Shown: piece after piece, positions 43,729 through 51,997 of the stretch
Layout of the letters: the number at the start of each line of letters is the position of its first letter
Position numbering within the stretch: the first letter of the stretch is position 1
Source of the DNA: an uncultured bacterium
GTDB lineage: Bacteria > Planctomycetota > UBA1135 > GCA-002686595
Length of the DNA: 64,000 nucleotides
Assembly (NCBI GenBank): GCA_943787795.1
Contig: CALSNU010000001.1
Location: 800,001 to 864,000 of the forward strand
Direction: 5' to 3'
Notes under the pieces: model-generated
What the model was told of the DNA's origin: nothing
What the model saw: the letters and a program-made list of their open reading frames with translations, nothing else
Database searches by the model: none
Program-made: the position numbers and the translations under genes

Positions 43729-46700
43729 GTGGTCACAGGAAATCAAAAGTCGCGAACGAGAGCCTCGTTCTTCGCTCTTTGGTGCCTTCTCCTGTCGCCT
43801 TCCGCGTCCGGCTCTCCCGTTGGTGGTGGCTCTCCCCTGACCCGCCATGCCTGGGTCGCCCTGGACCCGCCGGTTTCCCTGGATCCGCCGGTTTCCCTGG
43901 ATCCGCCGGTTTCCCTGGATCCGCCGGGCGCCTCGGACCCGCCCCGGGCCGGGCGGGCCCGCAGGGCAACGTCGGGGCCCCTCGATCTGCGCAGGATCAG
44001 GCGCATCACCGAGATCTCCGCGGCGCTGTTGGACCTCGACGCAGAGGCCCTGGACCGCGCCGCGACCGCCTATCGCGCGACGGTGCCGGAGGACCTCACC
44101 CTCGCGGTCATCCTCCGTGCGGGTCGCCCGGTCCCTCCGGGCCTGGCCGCCGCCCGCCGAGCTCAGCGGGAAGCGCGCGCCGAGGAGGCCCTCGCCTGGC
44201 TTGTGCGTGAACGCGAATCGGGCCCTGGCCGCGAGCACACCGACGCCTGCCTGGACTTTGCCCTGTCGGCCGGCGGAGGCGAGGCGCCGTCGATTCCCGA
44301 GCTCGAGATCGCCGCCTCGTTCGTCGTGGCCGACCTCGAGCTGATCGATCACGCGCCGGCGGTGGCGCGGCTCCTGGACAAGGGGGCCTCGGCGGAGGTC
44401 CGTAAGGGCGCGAAGACGGCGCTCTTCAGGCTCTACGCCCGCTCTTTTGATTCCCTCGCGGGCTTCGAGAGCCGCTGGCCGCAGCTGGAGGGGAGGGCGC
44501 CTGAGGCCACCGGCCGCGATGAGCTCCGGGCCGCTCTGGAGGAGGGGAACGGGCGAGCTCTGGCGCTGCTGGAGCTCGCGCCCGGTCGATTTGACAAGGG
44601 ACCACTGGACTGGGTGGACCCCGAGATGGCGACAAGAGCGGCGCGGACCCTGGGCCGAGCGGTCGCGGGCGGCGCGCTCGATCCCGAGTCCGCGCGGGAG
44701 CTGCTGGTGGAAGGGCTCGGCGCCGTGGCAGACCCCGGTGAGCTCCACGCACGTATGGGGGTCTTGATCGACCTCGTCCAGGGAGCCGACGCCGAGAGCG
44801 AGGCCGCGCGCGGCGTTCGTGAGACGGTTCACTCCGTGGCGGAGGCCTCGCTGCAGGCCGGGCCCGACTTCGTGTGGGTCTCCCTCGGAGCGCTTCGGAG
44901 GCTCCAGTATCCACCGGGAAGCGACGGGGACGCCGAGCGCCTCGCCGCGCTCGAGACCGCGGTCAGGGTCTTCCGCGGGGCGCTCGAGGCGCGTCGCTCG
45001 CGGCCCATCGACCCGGACGCCCTCCAGGGAGCGGTGCTCGCCATGCGTGACGTGGCCCGGGGCGTCCAGGATGCGGGGGAGCGTGAACGAGGCGTGCGGC
45101 TGCTGATGCGGGACCTGCGCGCGCTGGTCGTGGACACGGGCCTGCCCCTCGGCGTTCGCCGCGCGGCGGCGAGCTCCCTCACCCTCTCATCGGCAGCTCG
45201 CGACGCGCTCCAACTCGTGAACCTCATGCAGTCCCCCGAGGCGAGGGAGGCCCTGGGCTACGAGCTGCTCGGGGCGCTCAAGGTCGTGGCGGGGAGCCTG
45301 ACGCCCGGGAGTGAGGCGGCGGAGACGGTCCTGGACCGGCTGTTCGAGTTCGTGGCCGAGCCGGACTTCGATCGTCGTCGGCTCTCCCTCGAGCTCCTGC
45401 TCTCGGACGAGTTCGCGCCGCTCCTTGCCCATAAGGTCCGCGGGACGTCGGCACGATGGACGGTGCTGCGTCTGCGGGCGGAGCCGTCGGAGGAGCTGCG
45501 CCTGCGGCTGCTCTCACTCCTCGCGCGCATCGGCACCGTCGAGACGCTCGAGCTCCTGCTGGCACGGGAGGGGCTGGTCGAGGACATGATCGGCCCGGAT
45601 CCCGGTATGGCGAGCGCGCTCTGCGAGGCCGCGCTGGCGATGCACGACGTCTCGGACCCCGCGCCGCTGCTCCGCCTCGCGCGCCGCATTGCCGGTCCGC
45701 TGGGGACCCCAGATGCCCTGGATCCCACCCGGGTGGCCCGGCTGCGCGCCGGGGTCGAGCTGGTGCTTGGGCTCGATACGGAATCGAGCGAAGGGCTGCC
45801 GATTCGCGACAGTCGCTGGGTCGTCGCCGCGTCGGTCGATCTCCGGCGCGCGTATCCGGTGCTGGCGCTGGGGCAGTTGACCCGGTCTGATCGAGCGACG
45901 CTCCGCACCGTCCACGTGGCGAGGCTGCAGCAGGCCGTCCCGGGCGAGGACGAGGGCGAGGGCACGGCGGACGCCCCCTTGATCTCCTTGGCGCTCGGTC
46001 TGCTCGAGGCGGACGACCTCGCCGCTGAGCTTCGGGAGGACCCGTCGGAGCCCGGGGTGGGCCCGGGCGACCTCGTCGTCTCGGCGCGGATCCGCCGCGC
46101 GGAGCGAGCCATGGGGGAGCTGGACTCGGCCATGGTCGCCCCTGCGCCCATGGATCGGCTCGGCTGGGATCCCGTCAACCTCAGCCTCGAGGGGATCGAG
46201 CTGCTTCGGCGCATGGGGCGGAACGAGGCGGCGCTGGTCCGCACCGAGTCCCTCTTCGGGGGCCCCAGAGCGTCGATCGCCGGTCGATCGGGGCGGGCCG
46301 TCCGGCTGCTGGTGGTCCAGGCCTTGGAGGCGATCGACGCTGCCTTGATTCAAGGGGCCTCAGCTGGCGACTCAGCTGGCGACCCAGCTGGCGACTCAGC
46401 TGACGACGTAGCTGACAACTCCGCTGGCGACCCAGCTGGAGCCCCAGCCGGGGCAGCGGCCTCCGGTATCGATTCGACAGTCCGGGCGCGGGCGGACCTC
46501 GCGGCGCGGGGGCTCCTTGGTCTCATCGGGAAGGAGGGGTGGCCCGGAGAGCTACCTGCCACCCAACTGACGGATCTCGACGCCCTGCTCCGTCTTGTCC
46601 GGGTCGGGTCGGATGAGGGCGCGCGAGCCGAGGCGGTCACCTACCTCGACGAGCGCATGAAGAGTCAGGCTGCTGCGGTGGTGGCGTGGCGCTCTGCGCT

Positions 46701-46896
46701 GGCCGAGGCTGACCCGGAGGCCTTCTCCAAGGTCGAGGCAGACCTCGCCTCGACGCGCTCGATGGGGGAAGCGGGCCGCGAGGGGGACCCTGAAGCGGCC
46801 GCGGGGCCCGGAGGAACTCCCCGGTCAACGCCTCCCGCGGAGAGCTCGGCGGAAGGGGGGGCGATTGAAGGCTCGGGTTCCGGGGACGGAGCTTGA
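43729..46896 (+). CDS. Large hypothetical alpha-helical (HEAT-like) protein, possibly exported
   Basis: 1055 aa ORF with L/A/R/E-rich helical pattern and hydrophobic N-terminal segment; no family recognised. Confidence 0.55.
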   Translation: MVTGNQKSRTRASFFALWCLLLSPSASGSPVGGGSPLTRHAWVALDPPVSLDPPVSLDPPVSLDPPGASDPPRAGRARRATSGPLDLRRIRRITEISAALLDLDAEALDRAATAYRATVPEDLTLAVILRAGRPVPPGLAAARRAQREARAEEALAWLVRERESGPGREHTDACLDFALSAGGGEAPSIPELEIAASFVVADLELIDHAPAVARLLDKGASAEVRKGAKTALFRLYARSFDSLAGFESRWPQLEGRAPEATGRDELRAALEEGNGRALALLELAPGRFDKGPLDWVDPEMATRAARTLGRAVAGGALDPESARELLVEGLGAVADPGELHARMGVLIDLVQGADAESEAARGVRETVHSVAEASLQAGPDFVWVSLGALRRLQYPPGSDGDAERLAALETAVRVFRGALEARRSRPIDPDALQGAVLAMRDVARGVQDAGERERGVRLLMRDLRALVVDTGLPLGVRRAAASSLTLSSAARDALQLVNLMQSPEAREALGYELLGALKVVAGSLTPGSEAAETVLDRLFEFVAEPDFDRRRLSLELLLSDEFAPLLAHKVRGTSARWTVLRLRAEPSEELRLRLLSLLARIGTVETLELLLAREGLVEDMIGPDPGMASALCEAALAMHDVSDPAPLLRLARRIAGPLGTPDALDPTRVARLRAGVELVLGLDTESSEGLPIRDSRWVVAASVDLRRAYPVLALGQLTRSDRATLRTVHVARLQQAVPGEDEGEGTADAPLISLALGLLEADDLAAELREDPSEPGVGPGDLVVSARIRRAERAMGELDSAMVAPAPMDRLGWDPVNLSLEGIELLRRMGRNEAALVRTESLFGGPRASIAGRSGRAVRLLVVQALEAIDAALIQGASAGDSAGDPAGDSADDVADNSAGDPAGAPAGAAASGIDSTVRARADLAARGLLGLIGKEGWPGELPATQLTDLDALLRLVRVGSDEGARAEAVTYLDERMKSQAAAVVAWRSALAEADPEAFSKVEADLASTRSMGEAGREGDPEAAAGPGGTPRSTPPAESSAEGGAIEGSGSGDGA
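43861..43926 (+). repeat. 18 bp tandem repeat, encodes LDPPVS
   Basis: CTGGATCCGCCGGTTTCC about 3.5 times. Confidence 0.85.
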
Positions 46897-46933: not shown

Positions 46934-47010
<77 letters not shown>

Positions 47011-47017
47011 CTTCTAA

Positions 47018-47055
47018 GAGAGGACTGTGCCCTTCCCGGCGCGGTCCTCTTTTTT
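47018..47055 (+). terminator. Intrinsic terminator after tRNA
   Basis: AGAGGACTGTGCC...GGCGCGGTCCTCT stem followed by T run. Confidence 0.8.
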
Positions 47056-47390
47056 CGTGCCCGGGAAGGCGGGTGAGGTCGCCGGTACGAAGCGACCCCC
47101 GCTAGGCATGTCGTGAGATGCGGCCGAGCTCGGCCCCCTAGGGCTCCGATACGGTTCCCCGGAGGTTCCCCATGGGTTCCCCGATTTCGGCTCGCCCAGA
47201 GACGGCGCCGCGGAGGAGATTCGAGCGGGAATCGCGGTCTGGCAGGCCGCCCGCGGGGAGGACGCCGGCCCGGCATCCGGCGATTCTTGGGGGTGCGGGG
47301 AACTCGGCAGCTTGGATTGCTCGAGTTGTGCTTCAGTTCCACGAGAGCCGCGCCAGCGGGCGGCGGGATCTGGCCGATAGGACTCGATGG

Positions 47391-47591
47391 ATGACTGTCC
47401 CCGCCGACAACTCCGGTCCCACTGAAGGGGCCCGGCACGAGCCCTTCTACGAACACCGGGCACCGCTGTACCCGTGCCCGGCCTGCTCGGCAGGCGTGCT
47501 CCTCCCGAAGCAGGACACGCTGCACTTCGGCCAGTGGGCCGAGAGCCGGGCGCTCTACGAGGCGGTCGGCGGTCGGCGCTGGTACCGCTGA
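47391..47591 (+). pseudogene. Short gene fragment with CxxC motif, possibly a DUF4145-type N-terminus
   Basis: PLYPCPACSAGVL; runs head-on into the recombinase remnant. Confidence 0.25.
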
Positions 47592-47769
47592 TCGCGTCGT
47601 CGACGAAGAACCTGGCAAGTTCGAAGCCGTTCTCGTCGGCGTAGCGCTCGATGGCTTTCTTCTGGTCGGGGATGGACTGTTCCTGGCGGTCCGTTGAGCG
47701 GCGCAGGTAGCCGACGGCCACCTTGGACGGTGGGCGGCCCCGGGCCGGGGTGGGGGAGGTGCGTTGCAT
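47563..47769 (-). pseudogene. Truncated serine recombinase (catalytic N-terminus only)
   Basis: VAVGYLRRSTDRQEQSIPDQKKAIERYA...FFVDDAISGTSADRRP with catalytic YxRxS; similarity is lost after about 69 aa. Confidence 0.85.
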
Positions 47770-47943
47770 GGTGGATTCGCGTTGTTCCACCATGGAGGCT
47801 CAGCCTGGCCGAGACAGCCAGGGCATTCCGGCACCTCTTCGAGCATCCTCGCGGCCGCAAGTCCGCCACCGCTTGCGGGTTACGGCAGAGAGCTGGACGC
47901 CATTCCTCTCCAGGCGAGCCAAGCGGCCCCCCGCTACATTCAA

Positions 47944-47982
47944 GAAGAGAGGTCGCCCTTCGGGGCGACCTCTCTTCTTTCA
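47944..47982 (+). terminator. Intrinsic terminator following att scar 1
   Basis: GAAGAGAGGTCGCCC-TTCG-GGGCGACCTCTCTTC perfect stem, then TTT. Confidence 0.8.
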
Positions 47983-48552
47983 TTCCTCTCTGGCCCAACC
48001 GCTGACGCGGTTGGAGCGAGGCGCGCCCGGAGGGCGCGCGGGGTCGTGCGGCTCGCTGTGGGTCGGGCGGCTGGCGCGGTTGGAGCGAACACTTCCAGGG
48101 GAGGACTCGGCCCTTCCTGGCTGGGTCCTCTTCTTTCGTCGCCGATGCCGCCACGAGCCTCGAGGCACGGGACATCCGGTCAAGGGCTGAGCAGGGACAA
48201 CTGGCTTCTTGGAATGCCCGCCCGCTTCGTCCTGGTGCGCGCTCAACGGGAATGCACACTCCTCCAACAGGGGCTCGGCGCCATCCATTGCAAGTACGTG
48301 GGAGTGGCTCGCCAGCCCGGAAGGACCTCACGGGTACCACCAGCTTCTCGGGCAGGTTTCAGAACGCACGCCCGTTTCAGGTCGGTTCGGTCGATACGAG
48401 GGCAGTTGCCGACGCTTCTCGGGAAGTAAGCCCTACCCGCGTGGTATCCTGGGCAGCGCAAACACAACTTAGCGGGGACCTCGCGTAGACATACGGCCAC
48501 TTCTGGTCGTCACGATCCGGTCGCCTCCTCTGAGCATTCTTGAGGAGTGACC

Positions 48553-49722
48553 ATGTCCGCAGTCCCGCGATCCGCGTTGGTGCGCCCATTCGGTGCGAAT
48601 CTCGCCCTTCCCGCCGAGGACCCTCCGTCGCAGGCGCGGCAGGCAACTGCACTCGTCTACTGCGAGGCGAACTTCGGCGCCATCGACGGCAAGACGGCCA
48701 ACGGCCTCGTACGCCACTCGGAGAAGTACACGATCCTCTCCGTGATCGACAGCGAGAAGGCGGGCCGCGACGCAGGCACGGTGCTCGACGGGAAGCCCAA
48801 CGGCATCCCCATCTGTCGCGACATTCCCGATGCGCTGGCGCACGCTGGCCCGCTGCCCGACTACTTCATCTTCGGGATCGCGCCGGTGAGTGGAATGCTG
48901 TCGGCGCACGAGCGCAGCCTCGTGCTCGCCGCGATAGGGCTCGGGATGAACGTCGTGAACGGACTCCATGAGTTCCTGAGCGAGGATCCGGAGTTCGTGG
49001 CGGCCAGCGCAGCGAGCAACGTCGAGATCCTCGACGTCCGCAAGCCTCGCCCCAAGAAGGACCTGCGAGTCTTCAGTGGCCGCATCGCCGACGTCACGTG
49101 TCCGCGGATCGCCGTTCTTGGGACCGATTGCGCCATTGGCAAGCGCACGACTTCCAACATCTTGACACGCGCGCTCAACGCCATCGGCATCAAGGCTGTG
49201 ATGGTCGGCACCGGTCAGACAGGCTTGATGCAAGGCGCTCGCTACGGCATGGCGCTCGACGCCGTCCCGTCGCAGTTCTGCGCGGGTGAGCTCGAGGCGA
49301 CCATCATCGAAGCATTCGAAGGCGAGCAGCCCGACGTGATCGTCATCGAGGGGCAGGGCGCGCTGAGTCACCCGGCCTACTCGACCTCGTCCTTCATCCT
49401 GCGCGGCAGCTGCCCAGACGGCGTCGTGCTGCAGCACGCGCCGGGCCGGCCTCACCGCTGCGACTTCCCGGACATGGCGATGCCCTCGCCGGCCAGCGAG
49501 ATCGAGCTCATCGAGACATTCGCCGACACAAGGGTGATCGGCCTGACGCTCAACCACGAGCACATGACCGACGTCGAGCTCGAGGCGGCCATCACGCTGT
49601 ATGAGCTGGAGCTCGGCGTGCCCGCCACCGATGCGCTGACCCACTCTCCCGAGCGGCTGGTGGCGATGGTCCTCGGGGCCTTCCCGCAGCTCGGACCGAG
49701 GTTGGCCTCCGGCACGCGATGA
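48553..49722 (+). CDS. DUF1611 family P-loop protein (DgcN-like)
   Basis: GKTANGLVR, VVNGLHEFL, GTDCAIGKRTT, GTGQTG, IEGQGALSHPAY; GAGGAG RBS. Confidence 0.9.
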   Translation: MSAVPRSALVRPFGANLALPAEDPPSQARQATALVYCEANFGAIDGKTANGLVRHSEKYTILSVIDSEKAGRDAGTVLDGKPNGIPICRDIPDALAHAGPLPDYFIFGIAPVSGMLSAHERSLVLAAIGLGMNVVNGLHEFLSEDPEFVAASAASNVEILDVRKPRPKKDLRVFSGRIADVTCPRIAVLGTDCAIGKRTTSNILTRALNAIGIKAVMVGTGQTGLMQGARYGMALDAVPSQFCAGELEATIIEAFEGEQPDVIVIEGQGALSHPAYSTSSFILRGSCPDGVVLQHAPGRPHRCDFPDMAMPSPASEIELIETFADTRVIGLTLNHEHMTDVELEAAITLYELELGVPATDALTHSPERLVAMVLGAFPQLGPRLASGTR

Positions 49723-50882
49723 GCGCGCCGCGCCTGGAGATCGACCTGGGCAAGATCGAGCACAACGCCCGCGCGCTGGTCGAACGCCTGGCCGCCCGTG
49801 GCATCGCCGTCACGGGCGTCACGAAAGCGACCCTCGGCTCTCCCGAGATCGCCCAGGCGTTGCTGCGAGGGGGAGTTGTGCGGCTCGCCGATTCGCGCAT
49901 CGAGAACATCGAAGCCCTTCGGCGATCCGGCGTGTCAGCCTCGATGACCCTGATCCGCTCTCCGATGCTGAGCCAGGTGGACAGGGTCGTGGCCCATGCC
50001 GACGTGAGCTTCAACACCGAGCTCGAGGTCATCGGCAGGCTCTCGTCGGCCGCCATGCAGGTAGGGGAGTCCCACGGAGTCGTGCTCATGGTCGAACTCG
50101 GAGATCTGCGCGAGGGCATTCTGCCCGCCGACATCGAGCACATCGTGAGCGAGACCCTGCGCCTGCCGAACATCGCACTCAAGGGCATTGGGGCCAACCT
50201 CGCCTGTCGCAGCGGAGTCGTGCCCGGACCCGAGAACATGGCGGAGCTCTCGGCTCTGGCCGATTCGATCGATGCGACCTTCGGGCTCGAGCTCGAGATC
50301 GTCTCCGGCGGCAACTCAGCCAACCTCGGCTGGGTGTTCGGCTCGACGGATGTGGGACGGATCAACGACCTGCGCCTGGGGGAGGCGCTCCTGCTCGGCT
50401 GCGACCCAATCACCCGCCAATCGATCGAGGGGCTCGACACCGACGCCATCACGCTCACCGCCGAGGTGATCGAGGCCAAGCTCAAGCCCTCGCTGCCATG
50501 GGGCGAGATCGGACAATCCGCATTCGGAGAGCCGCCTCCCGCAACTGACCGGGGCCCTGTCTGGCAGACGATTCTCGCCCTCGGGCGCCAGGACGTCGAT
50601 CCAGAGGGCCTCCACCCGCCAGCGGGAATGAAAGTCCTGGAAGCGAGCAGCGACCATCTGATCGTGGACTTCGGCCCACATCGCCTGCCCGTCGGGGGGG
50701 AGGTCAGCTTTCAACTGAACTACAGCGCGCTGTTGCGCGCCATGACCTCACCCTTCGTCACCAAGGTCTTTGTGGGGGCGAGCCGTGCCGCGCCCCTCGC
50801 CGCGACCCTCGACGATGAGCACGCCTTCGGGGGATGGCATCGGGCCGCCCCGAACCGGAGGGTGGGCCCCCGTGCCGGGTGA
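49719..50882 (+). CDS. PLP-dependent fold-type III alanine/ornithine racemase family enzyme
   Basis: IDLGKIEHN, GVTK (PLP lysine), ADSRIEN, MVELGDLREG, SGGNS, SSDH; ATGA overlap. Confidence 0.88.
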   Translation: MSAPRLEIDLGKIEHNARALVERLAARGIAVTGVTKATLGSPEIAQALLRGGVVRLADSRIENIEALRRSGVSASMTLIRSPMLSQVDRVVAHADVSFNTELEVIGRLSSAAMQVGESHGVVLMVELGDLREGILPADIEHIVSETLRLPNIALKGIGANLACRSGVVPGPENMAELSALADSIDATFGLELEIVSGGNSANLGWVFGSTDVGRINDLRLGEALLLGCDPITRQSIEGLDTDAITLTAEVIEAKLKPSLPWGEIGQSAFGEPPPATDRGPVWQTILALGRQDVDPEGLHPPAGMKVLEASSDHLIVDFGPHRLPVGGEVSFQLNYSALLRAMTSPFVTKVFVGASRAAPLAATLDDEHAFGGWHRAAPNRRVGPRAG

Positions 50883-50980
50883 CGGTGCATGGGCACGACG
50901 AGGGAAAGCCCCGCCCGGCCCGTCTCGTCAGTCGCCTGCATCTCCAGCCGAGCCGAGCGGCCCCCCGCTACCACGTACGC

Positions 50981-51018
50981 GAGAGGATCTGGCTCCACCG
51001 GCCGGGTCCTCTTTTTTT
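50981..51018 (+). terminator. Intrinsic terminator following att scar 2
   Basis: GAGGATCTGGC...GCCGGGTCCTC followed by T7. Confidence 0.75.
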
Positions 51019-51183
51019 GTGCCCGCAGGACGCCCTGACCAGGGCGAGCGCCGCAGCCCCTTGGGCGCTCGCGGATTCCCAAGACCGTCTCGGTCCAGCC
51101 GTCCTGGAGCCAGCAGTCCTGGAGCAGGCCAGGTGGGACCCCCAGGCTCGCGGCGGCTTCACCGAGGCGCCAGCGCCCGACGT

Positions 51184-51906
51184 TCAGAGCCCGAGCTTCC
51201 TCTTCAGGTAGTCGCTCGTGAGGTGCCCAGCGGCATCGAAGGGGTCGCACTTGCCGCTCGGGTCGAAGTCGATGGGGCCGATCTTCTTCGCCACCCGGAG
51301 CGCCGCCCTGTTGAGGGCCTTCGTTCGCTTGCCGATCCCCAGCAGCGCGCCGGCCATGGACATCCGGACGCCCGTCGATTCCCTGGAGTGGCGCTGGTCG
51401 ATCAGCGCGATGTAGCCCAGGAAGCTCGCCTCGTCGGGCGCGCTCTTCTTCTTGGACTTCGAGACCTCATAGAGGAGGCCATATCCGCAGCTCCGACGGA
51501 CCCGATCCCGGCTCTCGATCCACCGGTCGATGAGCTCGACGACGAAGGGCGTCTTCGCGAGCGGGGCGCCGCAGGAGGAAAAGACGTGGGCGAGGTGCCC
51601 GCCATCGAGCTCCTGGACCTGAACTTCGGCCTGCTCGATCGTCATCCGCTTGGGGTCGTCGATCAAGAGCGCGATCACCTTGGCGTCGTAGACCCCCGTG
51701 GCCCAGAGGCGCCGCGCGAGCTCGGGGTCCTTGCCGAGGCCCTTGGCGTAGGACCGCAGCCGGGTGAGGCCCAAGCCGTAGCTCCGCAGGCCGCCCGAGC
51801 GGCCCTGGAGCTTCTTCCAGCTCGCGATGCCGCGCGGGTCCTGCTCGGCCTTCAGGAAGGCGAGGACCTCAGCCTTCGAGGTCGCACCGGATCCAGCTCT
51901 TGCCAT
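51184..51906 (-). CDS. DNA alkylation repair protein (AlkD-like family)
   Basis: YGLGLTRLR..AK..GKDPELARRLWATGVYDAKVIA...WI.S...RR pattern. Confidence 0.7.
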   Translation of the reverse strand: MARAGSGATSKAEVLAFLKAEQDPRGIASWKKLQGRSGGLRSYGLGLTRLRSYAKGLGKDPELARRLWATGVYDAKVIALLIDDPKRMTIEQAEVQVQELDGGHLAHVFSSCGAPLAKTPFVVELIDRWIESRDRVRRSCGYGLLYEVSKSKKKSAPDEASFLGYIALIDQRHSRESTGVRMSMAGALLGIGKRTKALNRAALRVAKKIGPIDFDPSGKCDPFDAAGHLTSDYLKRKLGL

Positions 51907-51997
51907 GGAAGAGAGCCTACACGGCCTGCGGAGGCCCGAGCCAGTGGGCCTCCATCGAGCTCGGACACGGGCTCCAGAGCGGACCGGGCGCCGGTGG

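Follow-up and report, generated by a model that had tools for sequence, protein, structure and literature searches.

A stack of two inserts behind an initiator tRNA gene of a planctomycete, likely placed there by a family of large serine recombinases

Directly behind the initiator tRNA gene of an uncultured planctomycete lies a stack of two inserts that was very probably built by a family of large serine recombinases, with a predicted crossover at the CC of tRNA bases 65-66. The DNA in question is a stretch of 64,000 nucleotides (assembly GCA_943787795.1, contig CALSNU010000001.1, positions 800,001 to 864,000; hereafter the window), and the sequencing runs that contain it are marine metagenomes. 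Insert 1 is the remnant of a large serine recombinase element and insert 2 is a cargo cassette that carries no integrase. We draw this conclusion from the borders of the inserts, an empty site in relatives, the arms that close the inserts and the linkage of the recombinase family to tRNA genes, all of which we observe directly. Other genomes, loci and proteins are referred to by G, L and P numbers.

Two tandem inserts and an empty site at the 3' end of tRNA-fMet

The only tRNA that ARAGORN calls in the window is tRNA-Met(CAT), at 46934-47010 on the forward strand. We take it to be of the initiator type from its unpaired 1:72 position, three anticodon-stem G-C pairs and A11-U24, and a pattern for the fMet tail matches once in the organism's own genome (G000), at this gene. 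Two tandem inserts of 929 bp and 3,034 bp follow directly, and both terminate in a 24-bp arm, a CC core and an arm made of the tRNA tail. The arm closing insert 1 (47904-47927, +; a P half-site with TCTC at -21..-18 and the inner motif AGCGG) is followed by junction 1, with CC core, right half-site and terminator (47928-47979, +). The P half-site closing insert 2 (50938-50961, +) runs into the CC core, right half-site and terminator at 50962-51013 (+), which are the genus-native tRNA-fMet trailer and the true attR. A preliminary description of this DNA had pointed to a match of 29 of 31 nucleotides between 47907-47937 and 50941-50971; we confirm it, and the two scars are each other's best non-self match in the 4.7-Mb genome (blastn E 5e-6).

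Sequence identity to the tRNA starts precisely at 46999-47000 (left run 0), the junction of T stem and acceptor stem and the symmetry centre already named in that description. The start of identity, the joint of the empty site and the dyad peak described below all point to this CC (+) as the crossover. To its left, the T arm of the tRNA serves as the putative B half-site (46975-46998, +); it is identical to P arms at 5-8 of 24 positions, and inspection by eye revealed no outer motif of the P type in it. To its right lies the right half-site of insert 1 (47001-47024, +), composed of tRNA bases 67-76 and a GAGA at +18..+21 that is part of the stem of a predicted terminator hairpin (47016-47049, +).

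The empty-site relative that the preliminary description had called for exists both in genomes and in metagenomic contigs. Two genomes of the same genus (G009, G017) carry the tRNA, then a trailer 95-97% identical to 50962-51025, then the gene found at 51997 in the window. In two of four runs examined, from two studies, contigs run from 46998 straight to 50962, leaving out 3,963 bp; 13 letters at the joint fit either side, the shorter sides of these contigs measure only 18 and 21 nt, and one contig continues for 500 nt at ~93%. Since the joint leads into the native trailer, scar 2 is the true far end of the stack and its right arm is the host's own: 50962-51013 is 95-97% identical to the trailers of G006, G009, G015 and G017 over 58-65 nt. 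The region of junction 1 resembles the tRNA-fMet trailers of other genomes instead (G011, G012, G019; 75-78% over ~100 nt). In G006 and G015 the cargo cassette of insert 2 stands alone at the site; the left ends of the inserts differ between the window and these genomes, so left ends have been exchanged. Contigs of two runs also join 48534 to 49889, skipping 1,354 bp of cargo genes, and may come from another organism.

Anatomy of the attachment sites

Joining the left arm 47904-47927 to 47001-47024 across the CC core, as the preliminary description had done, yields an attP-like site whose proposed pairing is borne out: the left arm matches the reverse complement of the right at 13 of 24 positions, with an outer run of 7 nt and an inner run of 5 nt. 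In 200,000 letter shuffles, 13 matches arose with p=0.0014 and a 7-nt run with p=0.0002, for a centre that was picked post hoc. The window-type arm is no dispersed repeat, an objection the earlier description had itself raised. It has two copies in its own genome, and 20 copies in 14 of 174 genomes of the family, representing 11 of 68 genera, with a single match in controls. For thirteen of these 20 copies, a tRNA-fMet tail lies upstream on the contig and strand of the arm (one of the tails belongs to a tRNA-like copy that ARAGORN does not call), and the other seven are on other contigs.

Conservation of the arms drops from 17 of 21 at position -22 to 8 of 21 at -25, so that the arm ends near -24; the C at -22 recurs in 17 of 21 arms even though -22 to -24 lay outside the search pattern. 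Summed over 15 rebuilt Met-type sites, the dyad score peaks at the core (154, against 111 for the next highest). Pairing at positions 18-22 is conserved, being complementary in 12-14 of the 15, and the outer dyad of the preliminary description stands to this extent; positions 23 and 24 pair in only 7 and 6 of 15, and in each of the window's four right arms the right half of the dyad also forms the 5' side of a hairpin that resembles a terminator. The TCTC motif on the left lies outside any terminator. The G304 arms, which were found from the right side and independently of the left-arm pattern, are paired at positions 18-23, position 22 by a different base pair. Met-type sites therefore have the build of a serine-integrase attachment site, at ~50 bp with an imperfect dyad, a 2-bp core and an outer motif near 16-24.

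The host site has another build than a canonical attB. In the empty site the right arm carries its motif at +18..+21, the same distance as in attP; no motif shifted 5 bp towards the core was seen by eye in the T arm, and an arrangement with the outer motifs 5 bp nearer the core on both arms is thus absent. Among 301 genomes of the order, 46 of 82 matches of GAGA behind the fMet tail fall in the P register, out of 13 possible spacings. At any spacing, and among genomes with a tail match, GAGA is present in 57 of 96 from the window's family (f1), 13 of 34 from f9 and 3 of 74 from f10. Three of the four half-sites are thus alike, the right arm being of the same type in inserts and in empty sites. 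A contig of run X8 joins a natural P arm to a right arm like 47008-47087, and this joint may be that of a circle or of an array.

A recombinase remnant and its intact relatives

The recombinase gene of insert 1 survives as a 77-codon 5' remnant on the reverse strand (47563-47793), which encodes a Resolvase N-terminus (E 9e-11) and is 97% identical to P0002, an intact large serine recombinase of 627 aa. P0002 has Resolvase, Recombinase and zinc-ribbon domains, and its AlphaFold model (mean predicted local distance difference test score 75) has a coiled coil, finds serine-integrase structures as its top fold matches (E 2e-19) and contains an extra C-terminal strand at 621-626. This combination of three domains and coiled coil, by which large serine recombinases are recognised, is found in P0002 and in the intact homologs. 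Homologs carry names that indicate Planctomycetota. In the remnant, homology ends at codon 77 through a deletion, and we found no further recombinase sequence in any frame of 47000-48600; the element is therefore dead. The open reading frame (ORF) at 47172-47591 and the other ORFs of insert 1 matched no Pfam or NCBIfam family. Another truncated family member, P0024, has a tail resembling the end of the window's ORF at the tRNA terminator, and is an independent case of the same kind of decay.

The gene was previously placed about 135 bp inside the scar, a distance that holds for the second ATG (47769), which is 134-135 bp away from the arm; for the first ATG (47793), which the intact relative shares, the distance is 110 bp, across an upstream region at 47794-47903 (-). 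Genome G042 repeats this layout, with a 5' remnant ~100 bp from a P arm. Genes for intact homologs point their 3' end at attL, and the short upstream spacing of the window is special, recurring in G042: across 119 loci (L042-L160), a tRNA tail within 400 bp upstream of a homologous gene was found only in the window copy and in one chance match.

Linkage of the recombinase family to tRNA genes

We scanned GTDB genomes with an alignment of 32 proteins, found 246 stretches that encode a relative and kept the best 80. At 37 of these 80 loci the recombinase gene faces a tRNA-Met (12), a tRNA-Glu (12) or a junction bearing a tRNA tail (13) within 10 kb. Rechecking 18 of the other 43 in whole genomes added four linked at 10-21 kb, which brings the total to 41 of 80; of the same 18, one is near but inverted, 12 are on a contig other than that of the fMet tail and one genome has no tail match. 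Met or Glu accounts for 25 of the 28 tRNA genes that ARAGORN finds in the 80 loci, and it calls no tmRNA there. In a tree of 78 proteins, built in quick mode with three short or broken loci excluded, the users of tRNA-Glu form a single clade (Shimodaira-Hasegawa-like approximate likelihood ratio support 98; 0 of 500 shuffles as low), and G305 carries both clades, each at its own tRNA. The earlier proposal that elements of this family repeatedly target tRNA-fMet is thereby supported, together with the expected tRNA linkage of homologs, and is amended in two respects: the family also includes the tRNA-Glu clade, and the scars are attP-like junctions, not ordinary attR sites.

Intact arrays illustrate the stacking. 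In G304 three intact recombinases stand in tandem behind tRNA-fMet, each behind a junction, at 273, 340 and 405 kb, and the first two units measure 67 and 65 kb; arrays also occur in G305 and G309. There is one Resolvase match per element in G304, G305, G309 and G310, and ParB and methylase genes lie near the integrase in G304 and G305. Element A of G304 carries a ~35-kb nonribosomal peptide synthetase/polyketide synthase cluster (L194-L195; G304:C1:290000-330000). One G305 element includes a gene for a coupling protein, which hints that it can be mobilised. Among annotated phages and plasmids we found distant relatives only, all below 60% identity (the 8 best-ranked of each at 23-28%), viral contigs contributed two loci, and the elements of this recombinase family are not mainly prophages. 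Three more distant serine recombinases, at 27-32% identity to P0002 (L155, L156 and L147, from G256, G048 and a metagenome), end right at tRNA-Met and may represent a second lineage that uses this tRNA.

Cassettes, spare att-like copies and neighbouring features

Eleven arm-bounded units of 1.4-6.1 kb have no recombinase match: insert 2 of the window, one each in G006, G015, G042, G261 and G272, two in G018 and three in G275. The cargo examined is metabolic, comprising a ferredoxin oxidoreductase, a dehydratase/TetR set and an FAD oxidoreductase. Insert 2 itself encodes a DUF1611 protein resembling the N-acetyltransferase DgcN (48553-49722, +) and an Orr-like protein of the alanine racemase family (49719-50882, +), the DgcN and Orr resemblances both falling below NCBIfam cut-offs; going by these family resemblances, the pair likely serves D-amino-acid use. 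The pair recurs at 75-76% identity in L004 (G001) and L005 (G040), with no tRNA link seen in L004.

Two features come in addition to those of the preliminary description. One is a decayed right arm with terminator at 48082-48136 (+). The other is a degenerate second att-like copy at 47072-47121 (+), past the tRNA terminator, with a B-like left part, a CC at 47096-47097 and an in-register GAGA at 47115-47118. In 8 of the 29 loci examined, a motif like this copy follows the tail at a distance of 66-75 nt, where the background rate is 0.23 per 260 nt, and full spare att-like copies occur in both clades; our guess is that they act as landing pads or decoys. An RNA role for the copy at 47070-47125 was rejected, as it folds no better than shuffled sequence (z -0.24).

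Other repeats accompany these tRNA genes. A tRNA-linked hairpin of ~27 nt (47992-48018, +) is conserved behind tRNA-fMet terminators in G011, G012, G019, G083, G202 and G042 (relatives' loci L027, L029, L014, L263, L277, L278), and has five looser matches elsewhere in its own genome. In G083 (L263:14690-14900) and G226 (L280:900-1080) the tRNA-fMet 3' half recurs in inverted orientation opposite the tRNA; the terminator between them serves both directions, and the whole forms a long palindrome. L272 (G105), L273 (G273) and L274 (G177) hold tandem 3'-half copies of 130-155 bp with terminator, in the manner of tRNA-linked repeats. Just upstream of the tRNA, 43729-46896 encodes a protein of 1,055 aa without a Pfam or NCBIfam match; the gene is conserved across the genus and contains a 12-bp repeat tract at 46350-46460. 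Beyond scar 2, a DNA-alkylation-repair gene (51184-51906) is present in G006 and absent from G009, G015 and G017; no att arm is seen there, and the difference is a separate gain or loss.

Discussion

Our observations suggest a cycle in which insertion reproduces its own substrates. A circular element would carry a ~50-bp site composed of the P arm and a right arm, R, in which a GAGA at +18..+21 follows the tRNA tail; the host site would combine the tRNA T arm, B, with another arm of the R type. When B|R and P|R recombine, the tRNA would keep B|R and the far end of the insert would receive P|R, the same two types of site, so that tRNA and terminator would be rebuilt at each insertion and the next element would find a usable site. 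Because this reaction regenerates B|R and P|R, it would account for the stacking at the tRNA with attP-like internal junctions, and because its products equal its substrates, a directionality factor is predicted to be unnecessary. Cassettes without an integrase would be moved in trans by an intact member of the family. We tentatively extend this to a broader proposal, one that we think may well prove wrong: that the system is a serine-recombinase counterpart of integron cassettes in Planctomycetota, with the T arm and the tRNA terminator as half-sites, no directionality factor, metabolic cassettes of 1.4-6 kb lacking an integrase, a 24-bp arm spread over at least 11 genera, a binding motif left behind tRNA-fMet in a large share of a bacterial family, and spare landing pads.

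Several observations weigh against insertion of the stack by this family at the CC. By sequence comparison, the crossover can be placed only within 46999-47011. Eleven of the 15 P arms are of one type and were found with a pattern that includes the dyad motifs, so the peak at the core is partly built in; two G305 sites lack a clear dyad peak, and three Glu-type sites are not centred on the core, with no centre found for them. Two G073 arms have degenerate right arms and lie on contigs without an fMet tail. The closest intact proteins are those of L122, L123 and L125-L127 (69-77%) and the frameshifted L124 (84%), and the 0-10 kb downstream flank of L122-L127 shows no tRNA-fMet or junction; the tie between the window's P arm and its sub-clade is drawn from truncated copies (window, G042, G243). 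In 39 of the 80 loci linkage in the usual geometry is lacking: 18 of these have less than 3 kb of flank, L055 is reversed, L102 lies near a tRNA-Ser, and L070 and L076 show no fMet tail across 60-127 kb downstream and may sit elsewhere. Lastly, a fragment of a tyrosine recombinase lies 1.3 kb beyond the scar in G083.

That fragment bears on the idea that a tyrosine integrase made the scars, as repeats of a tRNA 3' fragment, with the serine recombinase a passenger and the dyad a product of terminator stems. Tyrosine enzymes are the usual users of tRNA genes (PMC4383910; here and below, papers are cited for the portions of their text available to us), and the right outer motif is indeed a terminator strand. 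The two tyrosine recombinases of the window's own genome are nevertheless far from the locus, and neither the window nor the intact-array junctions of G304, G305 and G309 have any; the choice of target follows the serine recombinase tree, the left TCTC motif lies outside the terminator and arm conservation stops near -24. We regard this explanation, which the preliminary description had named as one that would overturn its reading, as largely refuted and very improbable. It is hardly credible, too, that the scars are host tRNA-linked repeats or duplications instead of recombination sites: G083, G105, G226 and G273 do have short copies of the tRNA tail, direct or inverted and with terminators, immediately after tRNA-fMet, but the scars bound unrelated cargo of 1.4-66 kb, a 24-bp arm foreign to the tRNA is common to 11 genera, and a precise empty site exists.

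A closer competitor keeps the recombinase family and changes its directionality. P|P' would recombine with a true B|B' only, the apparently empty trailers would be relics of lost elements, arrays would arise by homologous recombination or co-integration, and a directionality factor would have escaped notice. The P0002 model does contain a coiled coil, GAGA behind the tail is common in some families only, as relics would be, and the right repeats are extensive, reaching 33 identical nt in G304, so that RecA could act on them. In the arrays examined, however, every junction shares its starting core but has an unrelated left arm, and new units adjoin the tRNA, which implies that a B|R site is used repeatedly; the modelled strand at 621-626 would also match a feature noted for the non-directional recombinases of the methicillin-resistance staphylococcal cassette chromosome, SCCmec (PMC12286644). 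On balance we think ordinary directionality rather unlikely, and we continue to favour regeneration of B|R and P|R at each insertion.

tRNA genes are usually regarded as targets of tyrosine integrases, and here a widespread clade of serine recombinases is found at two tRNAs, with sites resolved to the base. The insertion site is predicted to be reusable after each insertion. Repeats of only ~10-13 nt of tRNA tail are likely to be missed by island finders. The layout of the half-sites allows the coiled-coil model of directionality to be examined in a single-protein system, as opposed to the two-protein CcrAB, and if the enzyme is active it would offer a reloadable landing site for Planctomycetota that preserves the tRNA, in a setting where initiator tRNA tails are widely conserved.

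Serine integrases are described as preferring coding genes (PMC12884075, PMC9580842, PMC8627217, PMC10083194, PMC13626063), and serine integration into tRNA genes has been called rare (PMC3218068) or not known (PMC4383910). Among described cases, the serine recombinases of mycobacterial actinomycete integrative and conjugative elements at tRNA-Leu and phage phiRSM at tRNA-Ser (Ghinet 2011, PMC3218068) share such integration with our elements and differ, by their descriptions, in phylum and tRNA. The elements also share a ~50-bp site, a 2-bp core, an outer zinc-domain motif and a coiled coil with LI/A118, Bxb1 and phiC31, in which the zinc-domain motif occupies positions 16-24 of attP and is shifted inward by 5 bp in attB (Rutherford 2013, PMC3783163); a canonical phage attB has this shift towards the core on both arms, unlike the empty-site right arm here, with its attP distance. 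Prochlorococcus tycheposons likewise stack cargo at tRNAs, including one tRNA-Met, with partial tRNA copies between units, but 910 of 937 have a tyrosine recombinase and the remainder a large serine one (10.1101/2020.12.28.424599). Islander-type islands are defined by carrying a tyrosine integrase next to the tRNA or a tRNA fragment, and our elements have none, the single fragment in G083 lying outside the scar. The literature searched yielded no published description of this clade; supplements and the TIGER and Durrant tables, which were outside its scope, may list such elements.

The nearest parallels are the Dehalococcoides ssrA islands with integrase DsiB (McMurdie 2011, PMC3146451) and staphylococcal cassette chromosome (SCC) elements. 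As far as the available portions describe them, DsiB islands share with our elements a reverse-strand large serine recombinase beside attL, a single-copy t(m)RNA gene whose 3' end receives tandem insertions, the lack of an integration module in many units, and integrase neighbours that include ParB and methylase genes (in our set, in G304 and G305). They target tmRNA midway through the T loop, whereas the elements studied here use tRNA-fMet or tRNA-Glu at the junction of T stem and acceptor stem; they have a second, small serine recombinase (DsiA), whereas we find one Resolvase match per element and no such partner; and the DsiB gene overlaps its site and encodes 540 aa, whereas our genes usually end 150 bp to 9.5 kb from the site and encode proteins of ~600-700 aa. 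SCC att sites comprise three similar half-sites and one in the target gene (PMC13739063), a three-plus-one layout that our elements share, as they share insertion at the rebuilt 3' end of an essential gene, tandem composites and units without a recombinase (PMC13739063, PMC12286644, PMC3783163). SCCmec enzymes recombine many pairings of sites and have extra C-terminal strands (PMC12286644). SCC elements target rlmH with a GA core, and ours a tRNA with a CC core and one recombinase per element; scores for Ccr families stay below the curated cut-offs (79 of 900 bits for CcrB; 50 of 900 and 40 of 700 for the others). Since serine recombinases that stack at the ends of tmRNA or tRNA genes have already been described, we consider the system a variant and no new kind: it works like DsiB islands and SCC cassettes and, by target, partner recombinase and score, belongs to neither.

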